Source: Candidatus Ratteibacteria bacterium
GTDB taxonomy: Bacteria > Ratteibacteria > UBA8468 > B48-G9 > DTJG01
NCBI GenBank assembly: GCA_049971295.1
Contig: JBMFLH010000031.1
Coordinates: 1 to 20,043 of the forward strand
Length of the DNA stretch: 20,043 bases
Direction: 5' to 3'
Below are positions 3,051 through 13,657 of the stretch, one piece after another; positions within the stretch are counted from its first letter, which is position 1, and each line of letters begins with the position of its first letter. The position numbers were made by a program, and so were the translations under genes. A model generated the notes under the pieces. That model was given only the letters and a program-made list of their open reading frames with translations. It was not told the origin of the DNA and searched no databases.

Positions 3051-3872
3051 CTAATTCAAGGCAATAAAGGAAAAATTGAGATTGAGCGTAATTCTCATTG
3101 GAACAGGCAAAAATTTTTCTTTCTTTTCCGGGTCAGGCACCTGAAACATGTAATTGACATCAAGGTTCAATTTCCCTGAGGTCTTTGCAATGACACCTTT
3201 CGTAGTATCAAATAGTATTTCTCCATCTGAATTGTTTTTCCCGGTTATTTTGACTTCTGTATCCTGCTGCTTTGAAGTCGTTTTTATAACTTGATTTGAA
3301 AGAAACCTGATTTTTTCGTAGCCCTTTGATGGACCTTCATAGATGTATGTGAATTCAAGTTGAGGAATTTTACCGGATGGAAAATTAAACGATTCAATTT
3401 TTTGAACCCATCGTGTTCCCTGTGTCATGGTTTCAGGAAAAACTGGGAATAATCCGATAAATGGTGCGAAATCAAGCAGCCCTCTCTTAAGAACCGCGGT
3501 TTTATGAATCCTGCCCTTTTTATCTATTTGAAGAAGCAATTGCGGAATAAATGAGGATATTTCAGTATCAGACCATGTTGTATCCTCAAAAATGTCCTCA
3601 TTAACCTGTATTTTTGATTTTTTTGCGGTTAATTTCAACTGATACAGCCCTTCTGATTCTCCAAGATTGACAAGTTCCATTAAAAAGTCAGCCCTGACTT
3701 TGAAATTTGAAGGTTTTTCATCAAATGAAGACCAACCAGCGTTTCCATTGATGTTGACCCGGTATGTCAATCTTTCAAGAGCAGGAAACTTATAACTGAA
3801 ACCTGTTTCCTGAGCAATCACTACCTGAGTAAGAAAACAAATGCTGCACGATAAAAAAAGTTTTATTTTCAT
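3051..3872 (-). CDS. Hypothetical secreted/periplasmic protein (273 aa, beta-strand rich)
   Basis: Long ORF with a signal-peptide-like N-terminus (MKIKLFLSCSICFLTQVVIA-Q). ATGA overlap (3872-3869) with the aminotransferase stop. No catalytic motif recognised. Confidence 0.75.
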   Translation of the reverse strand: MKIKLFLSCSICFLTQVVIAQETGFSYKFPALERLTYRVNINGNAGWSSFDEKPSNFKVRADFLMELVNLGESEGLYQLKLTAKKSKIQVNEDIFEDTTWSDTEISSFIPQLLLQIDKKGRIHKTAVLKRGLLDFAPFIGLFPVFPETMTQGTRWVQKIESFNFPSGKIPQLEFTYIYEGPSKGYEKIRFLSNQVIKTTSKQQDTEVKITGKNNSDGEILFDTTKGVIAKTSGKLNLDVNYMFQVPDPEKKEKFLPVPMRITLNLNFSFIALN

Positions 3873-5080: not shown

Positions 5081-5108
5081 TTGACAAGTTGAAATGAAAT
5101 GATACAAT
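5081..5108 (+). promoter_or_regulatory. Near-consensus sigma70 promoter for the surface-protein cluster
   Basis: Perfect -35 TTGACA (5081-5086), 16 nt spacer ending in TGn, -10 TACAAT (5103-5108). The predicted start site falls at about ATG 5115. Confidence 0.7.
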
Positions 5109-5114
5109 TTTCTT

Positions 5115-6008
5115 ATGAGATTAACAGTTATAAAAGTACTTGCTTTGTGTTGCATTTTTAATTGTATTTATCTTTTTGCGGAAAATTATGCTATCAGGGA
5201 TTTGCCTGAATTTTACACGCCAGGAACAAATATAACAGTGTCAATCACGGTATACACATTTCCCGAAACGCCGACCAATGGAATTATTGTAACTGAAACT
5301 CTTCCATCTGGCTGGATCCTGACTTGGTCAGATCCGTCCTGGAGCAAATATATACCATCTACAAACACCTATAAATGGCTTGCATTTAGTCAGTCTTCAA
5401 TTCCTCCTTTCACCATTAAATATAGAGTATATGTTCCAGCAGACGCAGCGGGTACATATAACTTCAATGGTGGATTTTCCGATGGTTATTCAGCAGAAGA
5501 GAGAGAAATTACTGGCGATAAATCCATTTCCCAGTTAACAGCGCAGGTTGAAAAACCAGTGTTTTCTCCTGAACCTGGCGTTTTCTATAATTTCTTTCCA
5601 GACGTTGAAATCACAACATCAACACAGAATGCTGTAATTCACTACACTGCTGATGAAACTGAACCTACAATTAATTCTTCATTATATTCCCAGCCATTGC
5701 ACATCAGTGCTACAACTACGATAAAGGCAAAGGGATTTAAAGACGGTTTTCAACCGAGTGAGATGGCAACTGGAACATATACAGTTGAGATTCAAAAAGG
5801 AGATATCAATAGAGACAGTATCATTGACATCCTGGATGTAATTCTTTGTCTTCGCATGTCTATCGAACTGGACATAGTAATCAATCAGCGGTCGTATGCC
5901 AGCCCATATACTGACTGGTTGATAACTGTGGCAGATTCTAATAACGACGGAACTATTGACATTTCAGATGTGATCAAGATTTTGAGGAAGACCGTTAACC
6001 TGAACTAA
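5115..6008 (+). CDS. Secreted modular protein: beta-sandwich (cohesin/DUF11-like) module + chitobiase/beta-hexosaminidase C-terminal-like (Fn3-associated) domain + type I dockerin
   Basis: Signal peptide aa 1-22. Module aa 26-139 (AIRDLP...GIIVTETLPSGW...ITGDKSI). aa 145-224 has PVFSPEPG...AVIHYTADETEP...TTTIKAKGFKDG. Paired Ca-loop repeats GDINRDSIIDILDV and ADSNNDGTIDISDV. Confidence 0.82.
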   Translation: MRLTVIKVLALCCIFNCIYLFAENYAIRDLPEFYTPGTNITVSITVYTFPETPTNGIIVTETLPSGWILTWSDPSWSKYIPSTNTYKWLAFSQSSIPPFTIKYRVYVPADAAGTYNFNGGFSDGYSAEEREITGDKSISQLTAQVEKPVFSPEPGVFYNFFPDVEITTSTQNAVIHYTADETEPTINSSLYSQPLHISATTTIKAKGFKDGFQPSEMATGTYTVEIQKGDINRDSIIDILDVILCLRMSIELDIVINQRSYASPYTDWLITVADSNNDGTIDISDVIKILRKTVNLN

Positions 6009-6021
6009 AAAGGGGGAGAAA

Positions 6022-9000
6022 GTGAAAAGTTTGAACGGTTTTAAATTTTTGTTTGCTTTACTGATCGTTGCTTCATTTGTTGTACACGCAGCAACCGTTT
6101 CAGGTCCATCACCAATTCGCGTAAGGGCAGGTGGAACATCAAGCTCTACTGCTGTTGATTACACTGCTGCATATGGCACTGGCGATAGTGGAGATTTTAC
6201 CTGGACTGAAACTGGCACATTGCCTGCTGGTTTGGTTACAATTTCCAGAATAGGGGGTTCACCATTTACCACAGCAAGACTTTCTGTGTCTGCCACTCCT
6301 TCAACCCAGCCTGCCTTATATCCAATTACAGTCAATGCATATCCAGCCACTGGCACTCCTGGGTTTCTTCCTGTTAATATTATAGTGGTTGAAGGACTTG
6401 GAAGTATTTCTCCAACAGCACTTAGTGCCGGTAAAGAAAATTCACCTGTTAATGTGCAATTCACAGTTTCAAGTGGTACTGGAAACTATACCTGGAGTTT
6501 ATCGGGCGCGCCAAATGGCGTTTCAATTAATCCTGCCACTGGGCTTCTTTCAGGGACTCCCCAGCCAGGGACTGCCGGAAGTTATACCCTGACAATCTCA
6601 GTGACTGATAACACGGCGCCTGTAGTCAGTACTCAGGTTATTATTCCATGGCAGGTATTTCCTGCTTACATTCCTTTGATTGATGCAGGCCAGATTTGCT
6701 ATGAAACAGGTATTGTCAGGAATGTCAATGGTGATATTACAAGCACCGGCGATTTGTATGTAAAAAATCTTGAGACAAATACTGAAAGAAGGGTGACAAA
6801 CTACGGTACAACAGGCACTGGTGCGATTTTAAATCCTATGTTTATTTCTGATGGTTCAAAAATTCTTTATACTTACAGTCCAAATCCTGCTACAACGAAT
6901 TTCAAGGTTTATCTTGTTAGTACCCAGGCGACAGTGTCTGACAGGAACCAGGGATTGATTTTAAGGAAAAACAATCAGGAAGCAATCCCACCGGCTGCAA
7001 ATGTAAAATATGCGACAATTTCTCCTAATTACAATGGGACGCAGGGACTTCTTGTATTTACATGGGAAAAAACAGATAGAACAGAACTATGGACTTATGA
7101 TTTTGCAACCGAGGCACTCTCCCAGATTAGATCAGAAGCAAATCTTGAAATCCGTCATCCAGTATTTTTAAACTCAAGTGTGATCGCATTCCTTGGAATT
7201 AAAAATGGAATGCAGGATATCTATGTGATAAACATTGATGGTTCGAGCTACAGAAAAATTACTGCGAATGTTCCAAATACTCCTTTTTATGGAAGATTGC
7301 AGAGTTCATGGAGAAACGGGACTCTCAGTAATCCACTCCTGATTTATTCAAAAAGAATTTATGAGGGATTTGGATATGGAAAATGGGATGTTTTTGTGGC
7401 TGAAGTTAACTTTGTAAACGGTACCCTCACTGAATACAATGTGACAAATACAAGGGACATTGATGAATACAGCCCGAGTTTTTTTGGTGATGACCAGAGT
7501 AGAACCTGGGTCGTGTTACAGCTTTCTGATGGTCAAATGTTCTATGAGGCAGAAGTTGTCCCTGGTTATAGGGAACTCTGGCAGGCAAACTACAACACTG
7601 TAAATCAGGCAAATAGCAATTCTGTCAAAACCCAGAGAGCAAGAAACGGCAACCTTGGACTTGCAAACTGGTCTCCAGTGCCAGCCGCAGAGGCAGGAGA
7701 GGTCGTGACCATTGACCAAACCCGTCTTATTTATCTCAAACAGGTTGGTTCTTACAGGGAAGTTTTCAGGTCAGACTATGTTGGTGGCGCATTTGACACC
7801 AATGGTGTTCAATTGACTCCATCTTCACTCAATGTTAATAAGTCCAATCCCTCAATTGCAAGAAATGGCGGAACTATTTCATTTACCATGGAATCAGTTC
7901 CCACAGCAATCAGCAAAATGAATCACGATGGTTCAGGGCTTATCCAGTTTGCAACGCACCTGAGTCAGAATCTGGACTTTTCGAGTGTGTCTCCTGATGG
8001 AAGATGGATCGTTTATGCAAGAAGAACAGCCCCTAATGTTTATGGAATCTTCGCAAAAAGGACCACCCGTGATGCTACCTATGGAGAATCGACTCTCGTT
8101 ACAAACATCCAGGCAACAGCAATAGATGCGCCTGTATTTAACCCTGACATGACGAGAATCGTTTACGCTAAACAGGACCCGGGAGGGAAATTTGATATTT
8201 ACTATGTACCGATAAAAGTTGATAGCACAGTTGATGATAGTATGATTGCGGTGGGTTCTCCAGTAAATTTAACAAATACTCCGGCAGTCCATGAAAGAAT
8301 GCCGTCATTCTCTAACACAGGCACAAAAATTATCTATTGTTCAAACAAAGAACTTGGCATAGAAGATTACGAGATTTTCACGATGGATATTAATGGTTCA
8401 GGGATAGAAAAGGTTGTTTCTGGTCCAGGCCACAGGTGGCCTGTTTACAGTCCGGTATCTGATGCCGTAGCAGGAACAGATATCATTGGCTATGTTGAAA
8501 ACAACCAGATTATGTATGCAACGCTCTCACGCATAGCACCACCAGGCACTCCTTCAGGACAGAATCCCGTAACAAATGTTGTTGCCACAGGAATAAATGT
8601 GCCCGCAGGTTATGAAAGATTTTCCTGGGGTAGAAATAGAGCAAAAGGAACGATTTTTGCGTCAAGAACCCTTGGGGCAACCACTGCTGCTGGTCAGTCA
8701 ATTACATACCAGATTACAATTGATGTTGATGAAGCAAGTATACCAAACTCATATACACTTAATGAAACCTTCTCTTCCTCGTTTAACGATATTCATGCAT
8801 TTGTAGATGGAGTGAAGGCAGATACCACACTGTATTATGATTATCCATCCACAGGAGTTCAGACCCTGAAACTTTTGTTTATGTCGGGTAAGAATGGTGG
8901 CGTAATGGACCACCTCGTAAGAGTTATCCTCAAAACGCCTTCAACGACCGGAAGCCAGGCATTTATTGGAAATGTGAGCTACACCATTGATGGTGTTCCA

Positions 9001-9348
9001 AGGGCAGACATAATTACAGGCAATGGTTCTACGATGATTCAAAATCCATATCTGCCTGTGGATGTTTATGACAGTAGCAACCTTGTTGCGTCTGATGGTA
9101 TCATTCAGGATTTTGACCTTCTTTATGCAATTGATGCCTGGGCAAGGGATGCTCAACTTACTGGGTATGGCATCGTCTGGCCTCAGAACATTAATAACTG
9201 GGATAAAATTCTGATAGGTTCAGGTGGCAACTCTGGTATTATTCCAATATGGGCGAATTCAACATACATGGGTGGTTATAAGTATGATGTGACAAATCCA
9301 GGTTCTGTTTACGAAATGTTCTGGGTGCCCGGAGAATTTCAGCAGTGA
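6022..9348 (+). CDS. Large secreted protein (1108 aa): Ig-like/He_PIG domains + TolB-like (PD40) beta-propeller repeats + C-terminal beta-sandwich module and dockerin/EF-hand-like tail
   Basis: GTG start after AGGGGGAG; signal peptide ending VHA. He_PIG-like YTWSLSGAPNGVSINPATGLLSGTP...YTLTISVTD. PD40-like repeats NPMFISDGSKILY, VSPDGRWIVY, PVFNPDMTRIVY and PSFSNTGTKIIY. Tail SDGIIQDFDLLYAIDAW. Confidence 0.85.
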   Translation: MKSLNGFKFLFALLIVASFVVHAATVSGPSPIRVRAGGTSSSTAVDYTAAYGTGDSGDFTWTETGTLPAGLVTISRIGGSPFTTARLSVSATPSTQPALYPITVNAYPATGTPGFLPVNIIVVEGLGSISPTALSAGKENSPVNVQFTVSSGTGNYTWSLSGAPNGVSINPATGLLSGTPQPGTAGSYTLTISVTDNTAPVVSTQVIIPWQVFPAYIPLIDAGQICYETGIVRNVNGDITSTGDLYVKNLETNTERRVTNYGTTGTGAILNPMFISDGSKILYTYSPNPATTNFKVYLVSTQATVSDRNQGLILRKNNQEAIPPAANVKYATISPNYNGTQGLLVFTWEKTDRTELWTYDFATEALSQIRSEANLEIRHPVFLNSSVIAFLGIKNGMQDIYVINIDGSSYRKITANVPNTPFYGRLQSSWRNGTLSNPLLIYSKRIYEGFGYGKWDVFVAEVNFVNGTLTEYNVTNTRDIDEYSPSFFGDDQSRTWVVLQLSDGQMFYEAEVVPGYRELWQANYNTVNQANSNSVKTQRARNGNLGLANWSPVPAAEAGEVVTIDQTRLIYLKQVGSYREVFRSDYVGGAFDTNGVQLTPSSLNVNKSNPSIARNGGTISFTMESVPTAISKMNHDGSGLIQFATHLSQNLDFSSVSPDGRWIVYARRTAPNVYGIFAKRTTRDATYGESTLVTNIQATAIDAPVFNPDMTRIVYAKQDPGGKFDIYYVPIKVDSTVDDSMIAVGSPVNLTNTPAVHERMPSFSNTGTKIIYCSNKELGIEDYEIFTMDINGSGIEKVVSGPGHRWPVYSPVSDAVAGTDIIGYVENNQIMYATLSRIAPPGTPSGQNPVTNVVATGINVPAGYERFSWGRNRAKGTIFASRTLGATTAAGQSITYQITIDVDEASIPNSYTLNETFSSSFNDIHAFVDGVKADTTLYYDYPSTGVQTLKLLFMSGKNGGVMDHLVRVILKTPSTTGSQAFIGNVSYTIDGVPRADIITGNGSTMIQNPYLPVDVYDSSNLVASDGIIQDFDLLYAIDAWARDAQLTGYGIVWPQNINNWDKILIGSGGNSGIIPIWANSTYMGGYKYDVTNPGSVYEMFWVPGEFQQ

Positions 9349-10493
9349 AAAAATTACCAATCTTATTTGCGGTTTTGTTGTTTCTGGGATGCTTAAATTC
9401 ATTTGCCCAGAGAGTTGACCTGATATTTCTCATTGATGGCTCAGGAAGTATGGGGGGGCAACCATTTAATACTGAAAAGGAAGGGCTTGCCAGTGCCATT
9501 GAAGACCCAACTGTTGTGCCTACAGATGGTTCAGTGAGTGTAACGGTCATCCAATTTTCAGGTGGAAGTCCACCTGATCCTGATGCGAGAATTGAAGTTT
9601 CGCCGACTCTTATTACCAGTCCCGCTGTTGCACAACAGGTTGCAAGCTCGATTAGAAATATTTCTATTCTTGATCATTCAACCTATTTTGCGCCAGCGTT
9701 TGACCTTGCTGTCAGCACAATTATGTCCTGGCCACAGAGGGCTCAAAGGCAGGTTATTAATCTTATTACAGATGGTAACAATTCTGATCAATCAGAAACA
9801 GCAACTGCTGTAGCCAATGCAATGGCTGCTGGTATTGACCTTATCAATGTGATGGGTGTGGGATATGGGCTTGACGAAAATAATATGTGGACTATTGCAA
9901 ACCCACATTACCCGGGATATCCTGATCCATCGAGAAGACCTGCATCTCCAAGCAGGGATTATGGTTATGTATGGCTACTAACTGGATGGGAACAATTTGG
10001 ACCTGCTGTGAAACAGAAGATTTTGACAGAGATACATATTACCGTCAATTTTCACGATAATTACGCTGGTATTCCTTATCTACCTGTTACAATTACTGCT
10101 TCTGGAGGGGTTTCACCATACAGGTTTCAGGTTGTCAGTGGTATTCCTGGGCTTAATCTTGTTCAGATCAGTCCTGACATTGCAGAGTTAAGAGGGGTTC
10201 CGAGCACGACTGGGTCATATAATGTAAATATTATGGTGACTGATTCTTCAACTCCACCTATTCCGACAGTCGTTCAGGGTCCGGTGAATATTCTTCCTCC
10301 ACCCTATGTTGCTGTTCAAAGGACAGGTGGGAAAATTCTTTATGTGAAAAGCATTAATCGTGGAATTGACGGAGAACTGATGTCAACCGGTAACCTTTTT
10401 GTTAAAGACATTGCGACAAAAGTTGAAAATCAGCTGACAAATTACACGGGAAATTTATTATTAGAAATCCATTTTTCTCATCAGATGGGCTAG
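9345..10493 (+). CDS. Secreted vWA (MIDAS) domain + He_PIG-like Ig domain protein; N-terminal part of a frameshifted paralog of 6022-9348
   Basis: GTGA overlap with the upstream stop and GGAG at 9331-9334. Signal peptide ending SFA-Q. vWA motifs DLIFLIDGSGSM, VIQFS, ST and LITDG. Ig-like TITASGGVSPYRF...LRGVPSTTGSYNVNIMVTDS. The last residues before the break (STGNLFVKDIATKVENQLTNY) align with the paralog (STGDLYVKNLETNTERRVTNY). Confidence 0.85.
   Translation: MKKLPILFAVLLFLGCLNSFAQRVDLIFLIDGSGSMGGQPFNTEKEGLASAIEDPTVVPTDGSVSVTVIQFSGGSPPDPDARIEVSPTLITSPAVAQQVASSIRNISILDHSTYFAPAFDLAVSTIMSWPQRAQRQVINLITDGNNSDQSETATAVANAMAAGIDLINVMGVGYGLDENNMWTIANPHYPGYPDPSRRPASPSRDYGYVWLLTGWEQFGPAVKQKILTEIHITVNFHDNYAGIPYLPVTITASGGVSPYRFQVVSGIPGLNLVQISPDIAELRGVPSTTGSYNVNIMVTDSSTPPIPTVVQGPVNILPPPYVAVQRTGGKILYVKSINRGIDGELMSTGNLFVKDIATKVENQLTNYTGNLLLEIHFSHQMG
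10448..10457 (+). other. -1 frame junction with two overlapping X_XXY_YYZ slippery heptamers (G_GGA_AAT, A_AAT_TTA)
   Basis: Zero frame reads ACG GGA AAT TTA TTA TTA. The -1 frame reads GGG AAA TTT ATT ATT AGA AAT CCA, is open from 10427 to 13015, and restores homology to the paralog. Confidence 0.6.
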
Positions 10494-10522
10494 AAATCGT
10501 ATATACCAGCAACATTAGTGGA

Positions 10523-13015
10523 ATGTGGCAGATATACATCATTAATGTTCAGGATCGTATTGGGTCGCCACTACAGAAAATCGTGTGCAACAACGGTTAT
10601 CCTCATCCTTATGCATCCCTTTCGCCCGACAAGAATAGTCTCGCATTTGTTCAGGAAATAGCGGGTAAGACAGAACTTTTGGTTTATAACAGAACTACAA
10701 AAAGTTATTCATTGATTTTGGGTAATGCAGAGATCTCGGTAACTCATCTTGCTTTTCTTGATAATAGCACCATAGCATTTATTGGAATAAAAGATGGCAT
10801 CCAGGACATATACAAAATCACGATTGATGGAAAGGACTTTGTGAATTTGACAAAAAATATAAGTATCACTCCGCGGTACGGCAGAATTATAACCACTTTC
10901 AGAGACAAAAACAGAATCAGCTTTTATGATGACCTGAACAATCGTACTTACCAGCTGAATGAGATTATTTATGCCAAGCAGGTCTGGCAGGGATTTGGCT
11001 ATACAAACTGGGATGTGTATTCGTACAATATTGAACTTGGAACAGAGGTAAATCTGACAAAAACTCCTGATATGAATGAATTTGACCCATGCTATGGTAA
11101 TATAGCAGATCTATGGCGTGGAGATATGTTTTATTCTGCCTCAATTCTTGCAGGTTATGATGTCTGGATGACAAACTACGAATGGTATGACTGGTACACA
11201 ACTACAAATTCAATAAAAATGCCATTGACAGGCAGTGCTACGACCACTGAAATGGCTGGACTTATTGATTTCATACCATCCACTGACATTGGTGTGATAC
11301 CAGGAAAACCAATTGCAATGCAAGACACGAGGATTGTTTACTACGGAGGAAATGGAGTCATATACAGGTCGGATTTTGACGGAACAAACTGGTACAACCC
11401 AGGAACGACGATTTCAGTAGGAACAGTTGAAAAAAGCGTGTGTTGTTTGGATCCGAAAGGTGGAAAATTTGTTTACACCGTGAACTCTGTTCCTCAGACG
11501 CTTGGAAAGAGCAACCATGATGGTAGCGGAGAAACCATATTTTCATACGGAACACCAGCAGGAAATGAAATCAAGGATGCATGTTTCAGTCCTGATGGAA
11601 GATGGGTTGTATTTGTAAAAAGGGAAAAACCAGGCAGATACGGACTTTATGCAAAAATGACAAAGCAGGACTTTACATATCCTGATACACCACTATTGAC
11701 TAATATTAATTCAACCGATGTCGCATACCCTTCGTTTTCACCGGATGGAACAGTACTTGTATTCAGCATGAAGCAACCAGGAGGCACAAGCGACATATGG
11801 AAACTTACTGTAAGAACCGATGATAGCACCTCAATTACAACAGGAATTTTGCAAAACCTCACAAACACTCCTGCAATCAGTGAAACAAGCCCCTCTTACT
11901 CACCTGATGGCAAAAAAATTATCTTCATTTCAAACCATCCCGAAGGAATAAATCAGGTTTACACCTGTGATACGAACGGAACCAGCATTGAACTCGTAGT
12001 TGAAGGCAAAGATTCAGCCACAGGATTGAATCTTGACATTAACAGAGTGTTATTTGGAGATGTCAATGTGGAAACTTCTGTTTACTACATTGCCTATGCG
12101 AACACGGATCCTGCAACTGGTACAAAAACAATAAAAATCGCCAGGTTTGAAAAAGTAGACCCAACCCCTGGCGATGGTAAAAATTTGGCAACATTATACA
12201 TGGACACAGGACTTATTCCAGCAAGCGATAAATTTGACTGGGGAATCAAGAGGGAAAAAGGAACCGTTGTCGGGCAGAGAACACTTAACAGGCGAGCAGC
12301 AAAAGACCAGTATTTCCAGTATGGAATTGCAATTGATGTTGATGAAGCAGCGCTTTCTTCTGCATATACCCTTGAAGAGATTATTTCGTCAGATTTTTCA
12401 ACAGCAGACATTTCAGTTAGCATTGACGGTGGAGTTTTTTTCAATCCTACGATTTTTGAAAATTCCTCTGAAGGGCTTAAAACAATAAAACTTGTTTTTG
12501 GTCCAGGTCAAAACGGCGGAGCAGTTGACCACTACATAAAGGTAAAAATGAAGGCACCATCCTATACAGGCAATCAGGCAATAGAAGGCAGGGTTAATTA
12601 TATTTTGAATGGAAACCCTACTTCATCGACAATCAGCGGCAATTCCAGTATTTTTGTCTCAAGCCCGTATCTTCCAGTTGATGTCTATAATGAGACAGGA
12701 CTTGAAGGAAGTAATGGCATCGTAGAGGACTGGGACTTGCTTTTTGCGATTGATGCCTGGTGCAATGACAGGCAGTTGTCGGGATATGGAATAAAGTGGC
12801 CTCAGGACATTTGCCACTGGGATAATATCATTCATGCCATAATCCACATATGGGCAAGCCCTGCTGGAACCATAGGTTATCATACCAGTGGTACCACTGC
12901 GGCATCAGAAGTTTCAGGTCAATATCAATACGTTGGTCCGAACCAGTACAAATCGTCGCCATTAATTTCTGAGGTTCCAGAGATGTACTGGACGCAGGGC
13001 ATCTGGATTGATTGA
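10523..13015 (+). CDS. TolB-like (PD40) beta-propeller protein with C-terminal beta-sandwich module and dockerin/EF-hand-like tail; C-terminal part of the frameshifted gene starting at 9345
   Basis: Repeats SLSPDKNSLAF, CFSPDGRWVVF, PSFSPDGTVLVF and PSYSPDGKKIIF. Collinear with 6022-9348 (FIGIKDGIQDIY, IDVDEA, PYLPVDVY, DLLFAIDAW, EMYW). The frame continues upstream as FIIRNPFFSSDGLEIVYTSNISG. There is no signal peptide or well-spaced SD at 10523, so that ATG is probably internal. Confidence 0.85.
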   Translation: MWQIYIINVQDRIGSPLQKIVCNNGYPHPYASLSPDKNSLAFVQEIAGKTELLVYNRTTKSYSLILGNAEISVTHLAFLDNSTIAFIGIKDGIQDIYKITIDGKDFVNLTKNISITPRYGRIITTFRDKNRISFYDDLNNRTYQLNEIIYAKQVWQGFGYTNWDVYSYNIELGTEVNLTKTPDMNEFDPCYGNIADLWRGDMFYSASILAGYDVWMTNYEWYDWYTTTNSIKMPLTGSATTTEMAGLIDFIPSTDIGVIPGKPIAMQDTRIVYYGGNGVIYRSDFDGTNWYNPGTTISVGTVEKSVCCLDPKGGKFVYTVNSVPQTLGKSNHDGSGETIFSYGTPAGNEIKDACFSPDGRWVVFVKREKPGRYGLYAKMTKQDFTYPDTPLLTNINSTDVAYPSFSPDGTVLVFSMKQPGGTSDIWKLTVRTDDSTSITTGILQNLTNTPAISETSPSYSPDGKKIIFISNHPEGINQVYTCDTNGTSIELVVEGKDSATGLNLDINRVLFGDVNVETSVYYIAYANTDPATGTKTIKIARFEKVDPTPGDGKNLATLYMDTGLIPASDKFDWGIKREKGTVVGQRTLNRRAAKDQYFQYGIAIDVDEAALSSAYTLEEIISSDFSTADISVSIDGGVFFNPTIFENSSEGLKTIKLVFGPGQNGGAVDHYIKVKMKAPSYTGNQAIEGRVNYILNGNPTSSTISGNSSIFVSSPYLPVDVYNETGLEGSNGIVEDWDLLFAIDAWCNDRQLSGYGIKWPQDICHWDNIIHAIIHIWASPAGTIGYHTSGTTAASEVSGQYQYVGPNQYKSSPLISEVPEMYWTQGIWID

Positions 13016-13051
13016 AATTTACTTATGGTGCGTATTTTGAAATCCAGTATT

Positions 13052-13657
13052 ATGAAAAATATTCTTGCAATAGGTATCTTTGCCTTTGTTTCATTTTCCT
13101 TTTCCCAGACCGCGGCATTTCGCACTCTTCCAAAGACCTACCGACAGGGACAACTGATTTCAGTAAAAATTGATGTGAATGTTTTGTCCGAAGTCAGTGG
13201 AGTGATTGTGAAGGAATGGTTTCCTCAGGACTGGGTAATTCCAGAAACAATGATTAAAACAGATTATCAGACATTTTTGAAGATTGAAAATGACATTGAA
13301 AATCCTGGATACAAAATTTATAGTTGGGCTGCATTCGGAAACCCTGTTCCATCATTTACAATAAACTATAAGGTGCAGCTTCCGCAATCAGCTTCAGGCG
13401 ATTTATTCTTTTATGGAAAAATCATCACTCTTGACAATCCATGGGGAGCAGATATTGGCGGAGATAGTGTTATCAGTGGCAAATCAGGAGACATTGATGG
13501 CGATGGCAAGGTAGATATTATAGATGTGATTCTATGTCTGCAAATGGCGATTGGCAAATTGCCAGCAGACCTTCAAAAAGCAGATATGGACTCCAGTGGC
13601 GAAATTGATATTGTTGATGTCGTCATAATCCTAAGGGTTGCCATCGGGCTTTATTAA
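13052..13657 (+). CDS. Small secreted protein: beta-sandwich (cohesin/DUF11-like) module + type I dockerin; paralog of 5115-6008
   Basis: Signal peptide MKNILAIGIFAFVSFSFS-Q (alternative start 13025). Module AFRTLPKTY...GVIVKEWFPQDW...FTINYKVQLP...IGGDSVIS. Dockerin repeats GDIDGDGKVDIIDV and ADMDSSGEIDIVDV. Confidence 0.82.
   Translation: MKNILAIGIFAFVSFSFSQTAAFRTLPKTYRQGQLISVKIDVNVLSEVSGVIVKEWFPQDWVIPETMIKTDYQTFLKIENDIENPGYKIYSWAAFGNPVPSFTINYKVQLPQSASGDLFFYGKIITLDNPWGADIGGDSVISGKSGDIDGDGKVDIIDVILCLQMAIGKLPADLQKADMDSSGEIDIVDVVIILRVAIGLY

Follow-up and report, generated by a model that had tools for sequence, protein, structure and literature searches.

The question raised by this locus is what a cluster of four co-oriented genes, here called A to D, may build at the surface of a Ratteibacteria cell. 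The cluster lies at positions 5115 to 13657 of the window, by which we mean the whole stretch of DNA analysed (20,043 nucleotides (nt), contig JBMFLH010000031.1 of GenBank assembly GCA_049971295.1). Two small proteins (A and D) end in dockerins, two large ones (B and C) carry beta-propellers and a Trp-rich tail, and all four contain a shared module. The answer that we favour, tentatively, is a cell-surface scaffold held together by two plug-and-socket pairs, one of dockerin with cohesin and a predicted second one of shared module with tail. No description of such a system was found in the literature searched, which left out most subscription papers and all supplements; this search returned nothing on the CFI-box and nothing related on Altiarchaeota with dockerin. 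The host belongs to a lineage frequently classed as Omnitrophica (10.1101/2023.11.21.568195, available part). Below, genomes are labelled G (G000 is that of the window), loci L, proteins or protein clusters P and contigs C followed by a number.

In the proposed scaffold, the dockerins of A and D would attach to true cohesins, one of which sits on a membrane-anchored protein whose gene lies elsewhere. The shared module, as a second socket, would bind the Trp-rich tail of the double-propeller proteins. A and D would be adaptors, with the dockerin directed down to the anchored cohesin and the module outward to receive propeller tails, and lipoproteins consisting only of the module, together with module-CFI-box proteins, would offer further anchored sockets. 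The propeller proteins carry both module and tail, so subunits could chain into a mesh. Their interchangeable heads (Ig, vWA, gingipain C25, subtilase S8) would be what the scaffold displays, most likely in order to adhere to proteinaceous particles or cells and digest them. Export would run through Sec and then the type II secretion system, aided by the two GspC-like proteins of the cluster. The features on which this reading draws are listed here.

5081..5108, forward strand: sigma70-type promoter-like site with extended -10 (11/12 match, TG motif), 6 nt upstream of the ATG of A
5115..6008, forward strand: gene A, 297 amino acids; signal peptide, shared module, Fn3_assoc, canonical dockerin; predicted adaptor
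5181..5534, forward strand: shared module of A, DUF11-related R/E/G subfamily; predicted socket
5796..6005, forward strand: canonical two-repeat dockerin of A with a long linker (lineage profile and alignment)
6022..9348, forward strand: gene B, 1108 amino acids, GTG start; signal peptide, probable Ig, He_PIG Ig, two TolB-like propellers, module, tail
6661..8637 (boundary approximate), forward strand: tandem TolB/PD40-like beta-propellers of B (HHalign)
8650..9039, forward strand: shared module of B, predicted beta-sandwich of CnaA/cohesin/integrin-calf type (AlphaFold model and fold matches)
9040..9345, forward strand: Trp-rich tail at the C-terminus of B, with a single Ca-type loop and a pair of related helices; predicted to act as an atypical dockerin-like plug
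9345..13015, forward strand: gene C, as open reading frames (ORFs) 9345-10493 and 10523-13015; signal peptide, vWA with metal ion-dependent adhesion site (MIDAS), Ig, two propellers, module, tail
12263..12658, forward strand: shared module of C (iterated profile)
12659..13012, forward strand: tail of C
13025..13657, forward strand: gene D, 210 amino acids; signal peptide, module 13106-13480, canonical dockerin 13484-13654

Between the small and the large proteins the shared module has diverged beyond BLAST detection. An iterated profile recovered it in all four window proteins (E 5e-37 to 2e-26) and found 78 instances among 1510 ORFs, every one in a protein of this system. The AlphaFold model of the module and tail of B, built on 38 sequences, reached a predicted local distance difference test (pLDDT) score of 92. 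The module was examined by Foldseek and by a second-look structural alignment, which gave Z 12.2 for the Clostridium perfringens cohesin 2vo8 (root-mean-square deviation (rmsd) 3.2, 124 aligned) and Z 10.4-11.0 for type I cohesins. This match to cohesins (Z 10.4-12.2) ties with that to CnaA pilin and integrin domains (Z 11-13.3): integrin scored 13.3, CnaA pilin domains 12.0 and CLIPPER 11.0. At the positions of the isopeptide Lys, Asp and Asn of DUF11 repeats (86%, 88% and 87%, respectively; these residues are not universal in the family), the modules have Arg (98-100%), Glu (90-100%) and Gly (95-100%). On strand 6 a conserved Lys and a large hydrophobic residue occupy alternate positions; position 67 is large-hydrophobic in 80-88% of 218 modules (three groups) versus 7% of 203 DUF11 repeats. 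The shift on strand 3 is smaller, 65-88% in modules versus 44% in the repeats. Cohesins contact dockerins through their 8-3-6-5 sheet (PMC5429695, in the part available), and we infer that strands 3 and 6 of the module lie in the equivalent sheet, with the hydrophobic patch probably facing outward. The module is a DUF11-related sandwich that forms a distinct R/E/G subfamily. The preliminary description had said that a generic Ig or DUF11 fold of the module would count against its proposal; the relation to DUF11 holds, the generic stalk repeat does not.

The tail contains a single Ca-type loop and a pair of related helices, which end in Trp. Of the two Ca-loops of a dockerin it has only that of the first repeat, and one-loop dockerins are on record (PMC12270676, in the part available). 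None of 38 members matched PF00404. A wide structural search, made for the tail only, compared its model with 48,161 chains; the top match was a dockerin and 6 dockerins stood within the top 25 rows, all with Z <=3.0. We regard the modelled tail as a one-loop, weakly dockerin-like domain whose structural likeness is suggestive only. In a 90% database, 47 of the 48 tail matches were propeller proteins. Module plus tail resembled unnamed clusters at 0.92, with cohesin and dockerin clusters at 0.80-0.83, at lead level only. A PDB sequence search with the module returned 9IFR alone, weakly (E 0.008), and nothing useful was returned for module plus tail, for the short-tail alignment described below or for the propellers.

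A broader search with module plus tail as the query gave 260 matches, 150 of which were listed. Among these 150, a 40-residue short form of the tail was found in other lineages, and in seven proteins a short tail was not joined to a module. When a profile of the short tail was run on the 1510 ORFs, 32 Ratteibacteria long tails ranked first and mostly canonical dockerins came next; some long tails may have leaked into this profile. The module occupies the slots of cohesins, alone on lipoproteins, N-terminal on CFI-box stalks or beside a dockerin. Two to five modules may also stand in tandem, frequently joined by Thr-rich linkers; such arrays ended in a short tail in 15 of the listed proteins, in a CFI-box in three and in a canonical dockerin in three. 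The layouts parallel those of scaffoldins, of anchoring scaffoldins and of adaptors. Four or five modules in a scaffoldin-like array, together with a short tail, were seen in P0105, P0113, P0100, P0096, P0097 and L086:1-1704. The arrays tested had no NCBIfam name. An organism was named for 2 of the 30 clusters examined, and two array clusters were named Ca. Altiarchaeota; in the Altiarchaeota-like locus L086 the array gene lies among housekeeping genes with no partner nearby. A broader proposal, which we put forward with more reserve than the scaffold itself, is that the R/E/G module and the one-loop tail could form an unrecognised, DUF11-derived pair of cohesin-dockerin kind, from five-socket scaffoldin-like proteins in Altiarchaeota to Ratteibacteria, where a propeller mesh with adhesins and proteases would be tied to the outer membrane by canonical cohesin and dockerin.

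Several observations weigh against binding between module and tail. HHalign similarity was not significant for module and cohesin (1%) nor for tail and dockerin (2%), and 0 of the 78 modules matched the cohesin family PF00963 at E<=0.05. By sequence the nearest named family of the module is DUF11, with weak Pfam matches in 14 of the 78; module searches drift into DUF11 repeats, and the ESM Atlas places the module nearest DUF11 (template modelling score 0.80-0.82) with no cohesin cluster listed. DUF11 commonly builds adhesin stalks (10.1101/2025.04.25.650565, available part). The outward orientation of positions 36, 65 and 67 follows from strand alternation, not from coordinates. Foldseek with the tail gave nothing at E<=0.001, and its structural matches score very poorly (Z 3.0, rmsd 2.9, 53 aligned). 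In Ratteibacteria the tail invariably adjoins the module, which could be a stabiliser like the X-module before some dockerins. The broader search was seeded with module plus tail, favouring joint recovery of both. Finally, module and tail occur together in 20 of 65 genomes of the phylum (tail in 22, all of one order and three families; stand-alone module, counted at E<1e-15, in 21); this co-occurrence fits a pair, but clustering and kinship alone would also produce it.

These points bear on the alternative that survives best, which we consider unlikely: the module would be a passive spacer of DUF11 type, or a stabiliser like the X-module, and the propeller proteins would form an S-layer-like coat through other contacts (tail to tail, propeller to propeller, or tail to another partner), tethered by dockerin and cohesin. 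The DUF11 relation agrees with this, as does the tail that directly follows the module in all 38 long proteins aligned, and the five conserved classes of propeller paralogs suggest a lattice. However, the lipoproteins that carry nothing but the module are core conserved members, hard to explain as spacers; the hydrophobic patch is kept by modules and not in DUF11 repeats, and the short tail occurs also without a preceding module.

The first of the two pairs of the proposed scaffold, dockerin with cohesin, was followed in 41 genomes. Dockerins were matched in 23 of these and cohesins in 21, and all 21 cohesin genomes also have dockerins. G000 itself encodes two PF00963 cohesins and eight canonical dockerins. 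Two-repeat dockerins had been assigned to the C-termini of A and D, and both assignments were upheld: each has two Ca-loop and helix repeats (type I-like dockerin, PF00404). That of D scored over the Pfam cut-off (25.4 vs 22.9 bits); that of A had no Pfam dockerin match, probably because of its long linker, and was recovered by the lineage profile (E 5e-26) and by alignment. Pfam matches on A were Fn3_assoc and EF-hand-like. The 46 dockerins collected share one pattern with its helix motifs and occur on A, D, enzymes or cohesin-dockerin adaptors. The layout of D matches that of such adaptors in relatives, e.g. L071:17497-18165 (cohesin 23-154, dockerin 156-223). The dockerin proteins of G000 include an M14 carboxypeptidase and a clostripain (C11). 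No cellulase or hemicellulase was found among the dockerin proteins scanned, several dockerin ORFs of G000 being fragments outside that scan. In the loci read, which come from fragmented assemblies, at most two cohesins were present per protein. Next to the L071 adaptor, L071:7214-17485 encodes a protein of 3423 amino acids with papain-like, FG-GAP, Kelch and RCC1 repeats and an internal dockerin.

A candidate anchor, in which a cohesin stands at the N-terminus, a barrel-like domain at the C-terminus and a CFI-box between them, is encoded in G005, G009, G016, G045 and G048; in the last two its gene adjoins module lipoprotein genes. In G000 the ends of this protein match contigs C47 and C109, the join of which we infer. 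Five proteins (L067:3796-6741, L070:7728-11528, L092:2077-7026, L100:382-3204 and C109:2-2422) consist of two parts in frame. The first holds a passenger, a choice-of-anchor U, a CFI-box and a hydrophobic segment; the second holds another signal-peptide-like stretch and then a barrel-like domain, which has Phe or Leu at its end and matches TraB weakly. Cleavage may divide these two-part proteins into an anchored passenger and a barrel in the outer membrane.

The two pairs can be separated between genomes. In G013 (93% complete) no cohesin and no dockerin was found; its anchor ortholog has no cohesin, its A ortholog has a CFI-box anchor at the end where A has the dockerin, and three tails and five module matches are kept. 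This counts as one loss event, and related genomes are not independent. The reverse is seen in G019, G023, G029 and G040, which have cohesin and dockerin and no tail or strong module match; the dockerin of G040 aligns with those of A and D. The preliminary description had implied that the canonical dockerins of A and D bind the shared module, making the four window proteins a self-contained complex. The co-location of the genes and the tie in fold score between module and cohesins are in line with that pairing. However, true cohesins are present and track the dockerins, and both G013 and the four reverse genomes argue against it. The pairing is probably wrong, and a self-contained complex improbable.

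The large proteins had been described as having Ig or vWA plus Ig heads, TolB-like propellers and a conserved tail, all of which proved real by Pfam, HHalign and sequence. Pfam matched He_PIG and PD40 in B, and vWA and PD40 in C. The propeller region is made of two homologous halves (HHalign 98.8%, E 4.6e-17). In the vWA domain of C (PF00092, E 1e-16) the DxSxS...T...D MIDAS is intact, as in the three of three orthologs read. A likeness to integrins (propeller, vWA, calf-like fold) was considered and rejected as a shared common fold. The body of the propeller proteins is constant and the N-terminal head changes: it may be absent or be Ig, vWA, gingipain C25 or subtilase S8. The C25 head was found in four of four long proteins tested (G013, G016, G018 and G048; His and Cys motifs in the three read for them), and the S8 head in P0090. 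Proteases are thus fused to propeller subunits in some relatives, and the system is not enzyme-free; the earlier statement that no protease is present is correct for the window proteins and not for the system as a whole.

All four window proteins start with an N-terminal hydrophobic segment, and elsewhere hydrophobic 19-residue windows coincide with dockerin helices only. G000 encodes Omp85 and three secretins, indicating a diderm host with type II secretion or type IV pilus channels, and two GspC-like genes below the cut-off. A complex that stays in the periplasm is conceivable; it would serve the type II secretion apparatus or the envelope machinery as an accessory scaffold, and its TolB-like propellers would contact partners in the envelope. 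The lipoprotein members and adjoining GspC-like genes would suit it, the crossing of the outer membrane being a predicted step. We give this little credence: TolB scores lie far under the cut-off (57-99 vs 343 bits; 56.8 and 80.9 bits with TIGR02800), the vWA, Ig, gingipain and subtilase heads are typical of exoproteins, and the module-tail unit is present in archaea too.

A non-cellulolytic surface assembly of several proteins had also been proposed in the preliminary description, and this part is supported, though the window is not the whole system but about a third of it. The system genes are conserved; throughout one order they lie in clusters that also hold paralogs, anchors and GspC-like genes. 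About ten gene types stay together across three families, and in G009 nearly all of them lie in one locus of about 35 kb. G000 holds three further propeller-module-tail paralogs and in total 11 modules and three CFI-box proteins. A quick tree of 37 sequences resolved the five propeller paralog classes, with a few long branches unplaced. Near-full-length orthologs of B (60-88% identity) are present in eight other genomes of the genus, and the cluster genes are under purifying selection (ratio of nonsynonymous to synonymous substitution (dN/dS) 0.10-0.24). C is split by the loss of one base near 10458 relative to G005. It is unbroken in G005 (1231 amino acids), G006 (1125) and G011 (1134), and dN/dS on the two sides is 0.15 and 0.10, which points either to a very recent break or to an error of the assembly; a pattern spanning it had no metagenome match. 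Gene order differs between genera and C is absent beside B in several genomes, as independent secreted adhesins from local duplication would allow, but the cohesion of the gene set and the lack of an anchor of their own in B and C make that the least probable account.

The genes are spaced as tightly as first described: 13 nt between A and B, -4 (GTGA) between B and C, and 9 nt between C and D (36 nt with the second ATG of D). The promoter noted before the cluster is the best-scoring promoter-like site of the region, although such sites are at chance level in total (27 vs 23.1 +/- 4.4 in shuffles). By eye, a similar site precedes five of five other A orthologs, in four of them 5-9 nt from the ATG. 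From this proximity and recurrence in sequence, the mRNA of A is probably leaderless.

Other genes lie in or near the cluster. An ORF which we take to be a Y1 (REP-associated-type) transposase is present in G000 (C9:17170-17853) and in L034, L036, L091, L092, L097 and L101; in several genera such ORFs lie within the cluster or next to it, and they may be connected with its rearrangements. G000 C9:11265-16175 and L029:3-5363 encode a cluster protein of 1636-1786 amino acids with many CarboxypepD_reg-like repeats; an S-layer identity of the 1786-residue neighbour was rejected, its match to the anammox S-layer model being far under the cut-off (48 vs 1400 bits). In genus g5, L040:1377-4340 and L036:1407-4346 encode a papain-family C1 protease with lectin-like and Ig domains among module lipoprotein genes. 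L047:7491-8369 and its orthologs encode a conserved lipoprotein with a long Ser/Pro-rich tether and one C-terminal module, the only module-bearing system gene found in G049. In the window, 3051-3872 on the reverse strand encodes a probably secreted protein of 273 amino acids with no Pfam or NCBIfam match. The cluster is flanked by a divergent ORF and a convergent ORF which, from their translations, we take to be aminotransferase-like and Rex-like, respectively.

Non-cellulosomal cohesin-dockerin complexes have been proposed for Planctomycetes, Cloacimonadota and anaerobic methanotrophic archaea (ANME) (PMC6461901, PMC8542988, PMC9012536, available parts). Such systems are known mostly as domain lists. 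Here the whole set of parts, from anchor and adaptors to subunits and genes for export, is conserved throughout one order of a phylum without cultured members, and one genome lost one linking pair and kept the other, predicted one. If module and tail do bind, they would be a new small affinity pair independent of cohesin and dockerin, a branch of the widespread DUF11 family would have a receptor function, and scaffoldin-like archaeal proteins that cohesin searches miss would be revealed.

Among known systems, the closest in architecture are cellulosomes with adaptor scaffoldins (Ruminococcus flavefaciens ScaA/ScaB/ScaC/ScaE; PMC5429695, PMC12270676). As far as the available parts of these papers show, the two have in common canonical dockerins and cohesins, small proteins shaped like adaptors, a cohesin anchored to the cell and several specificity classes, and the one-loop dockerins are a precedent for the tail. 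Different here are the cluster proteins scanned, which lack glycoside hydrolases, the diderm host, the CFI-box/beta-barrel anchor, the maximum of two cohesins seen per protein and the predicted, DUF11-related second socket. DUF11/CLIPPER CnaA-like domains (PF01345; 9IFR; 10.1101/2025.04.25.650565, the paper available in part) have a detectable sequence relation to the module and, for 9IFR, the same fold (Z 11.0, rmsd 2.8, 113 aligned). However, the module has R/E/G for the isopeptide K/D/N, falls under the Pfam cut-off in the window proteins and is used alone or a few in a row, accompanied by a tail, dockerin or anchor, instead of forming long stalks. TolB (TIGR02800) is alike in its PD40-type blades; B and C differ in their two tandem propellers, their extra domains and their low scores. 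The planctosome, the Ca. Stygibacter complex and the ANME scaffoldin-like proteins (PMC6461901, PMC8542988 and PMC9012536, respectively), all predicted from genomes only, likewise place dockerin-tagged peptidases on a diderm surface (here M14 and C11 in G000, C25 and S8 in relatives or homologs). In the available parts of those papers there is no double-propeller family, no module/tail pair, no GspC-linked cluster and no CFI-box/barrel anchor. We regard the system as real and conserved and, to all appearance, as an undescribed variant of the non-cellulosomal cohesin-dockerin kind.

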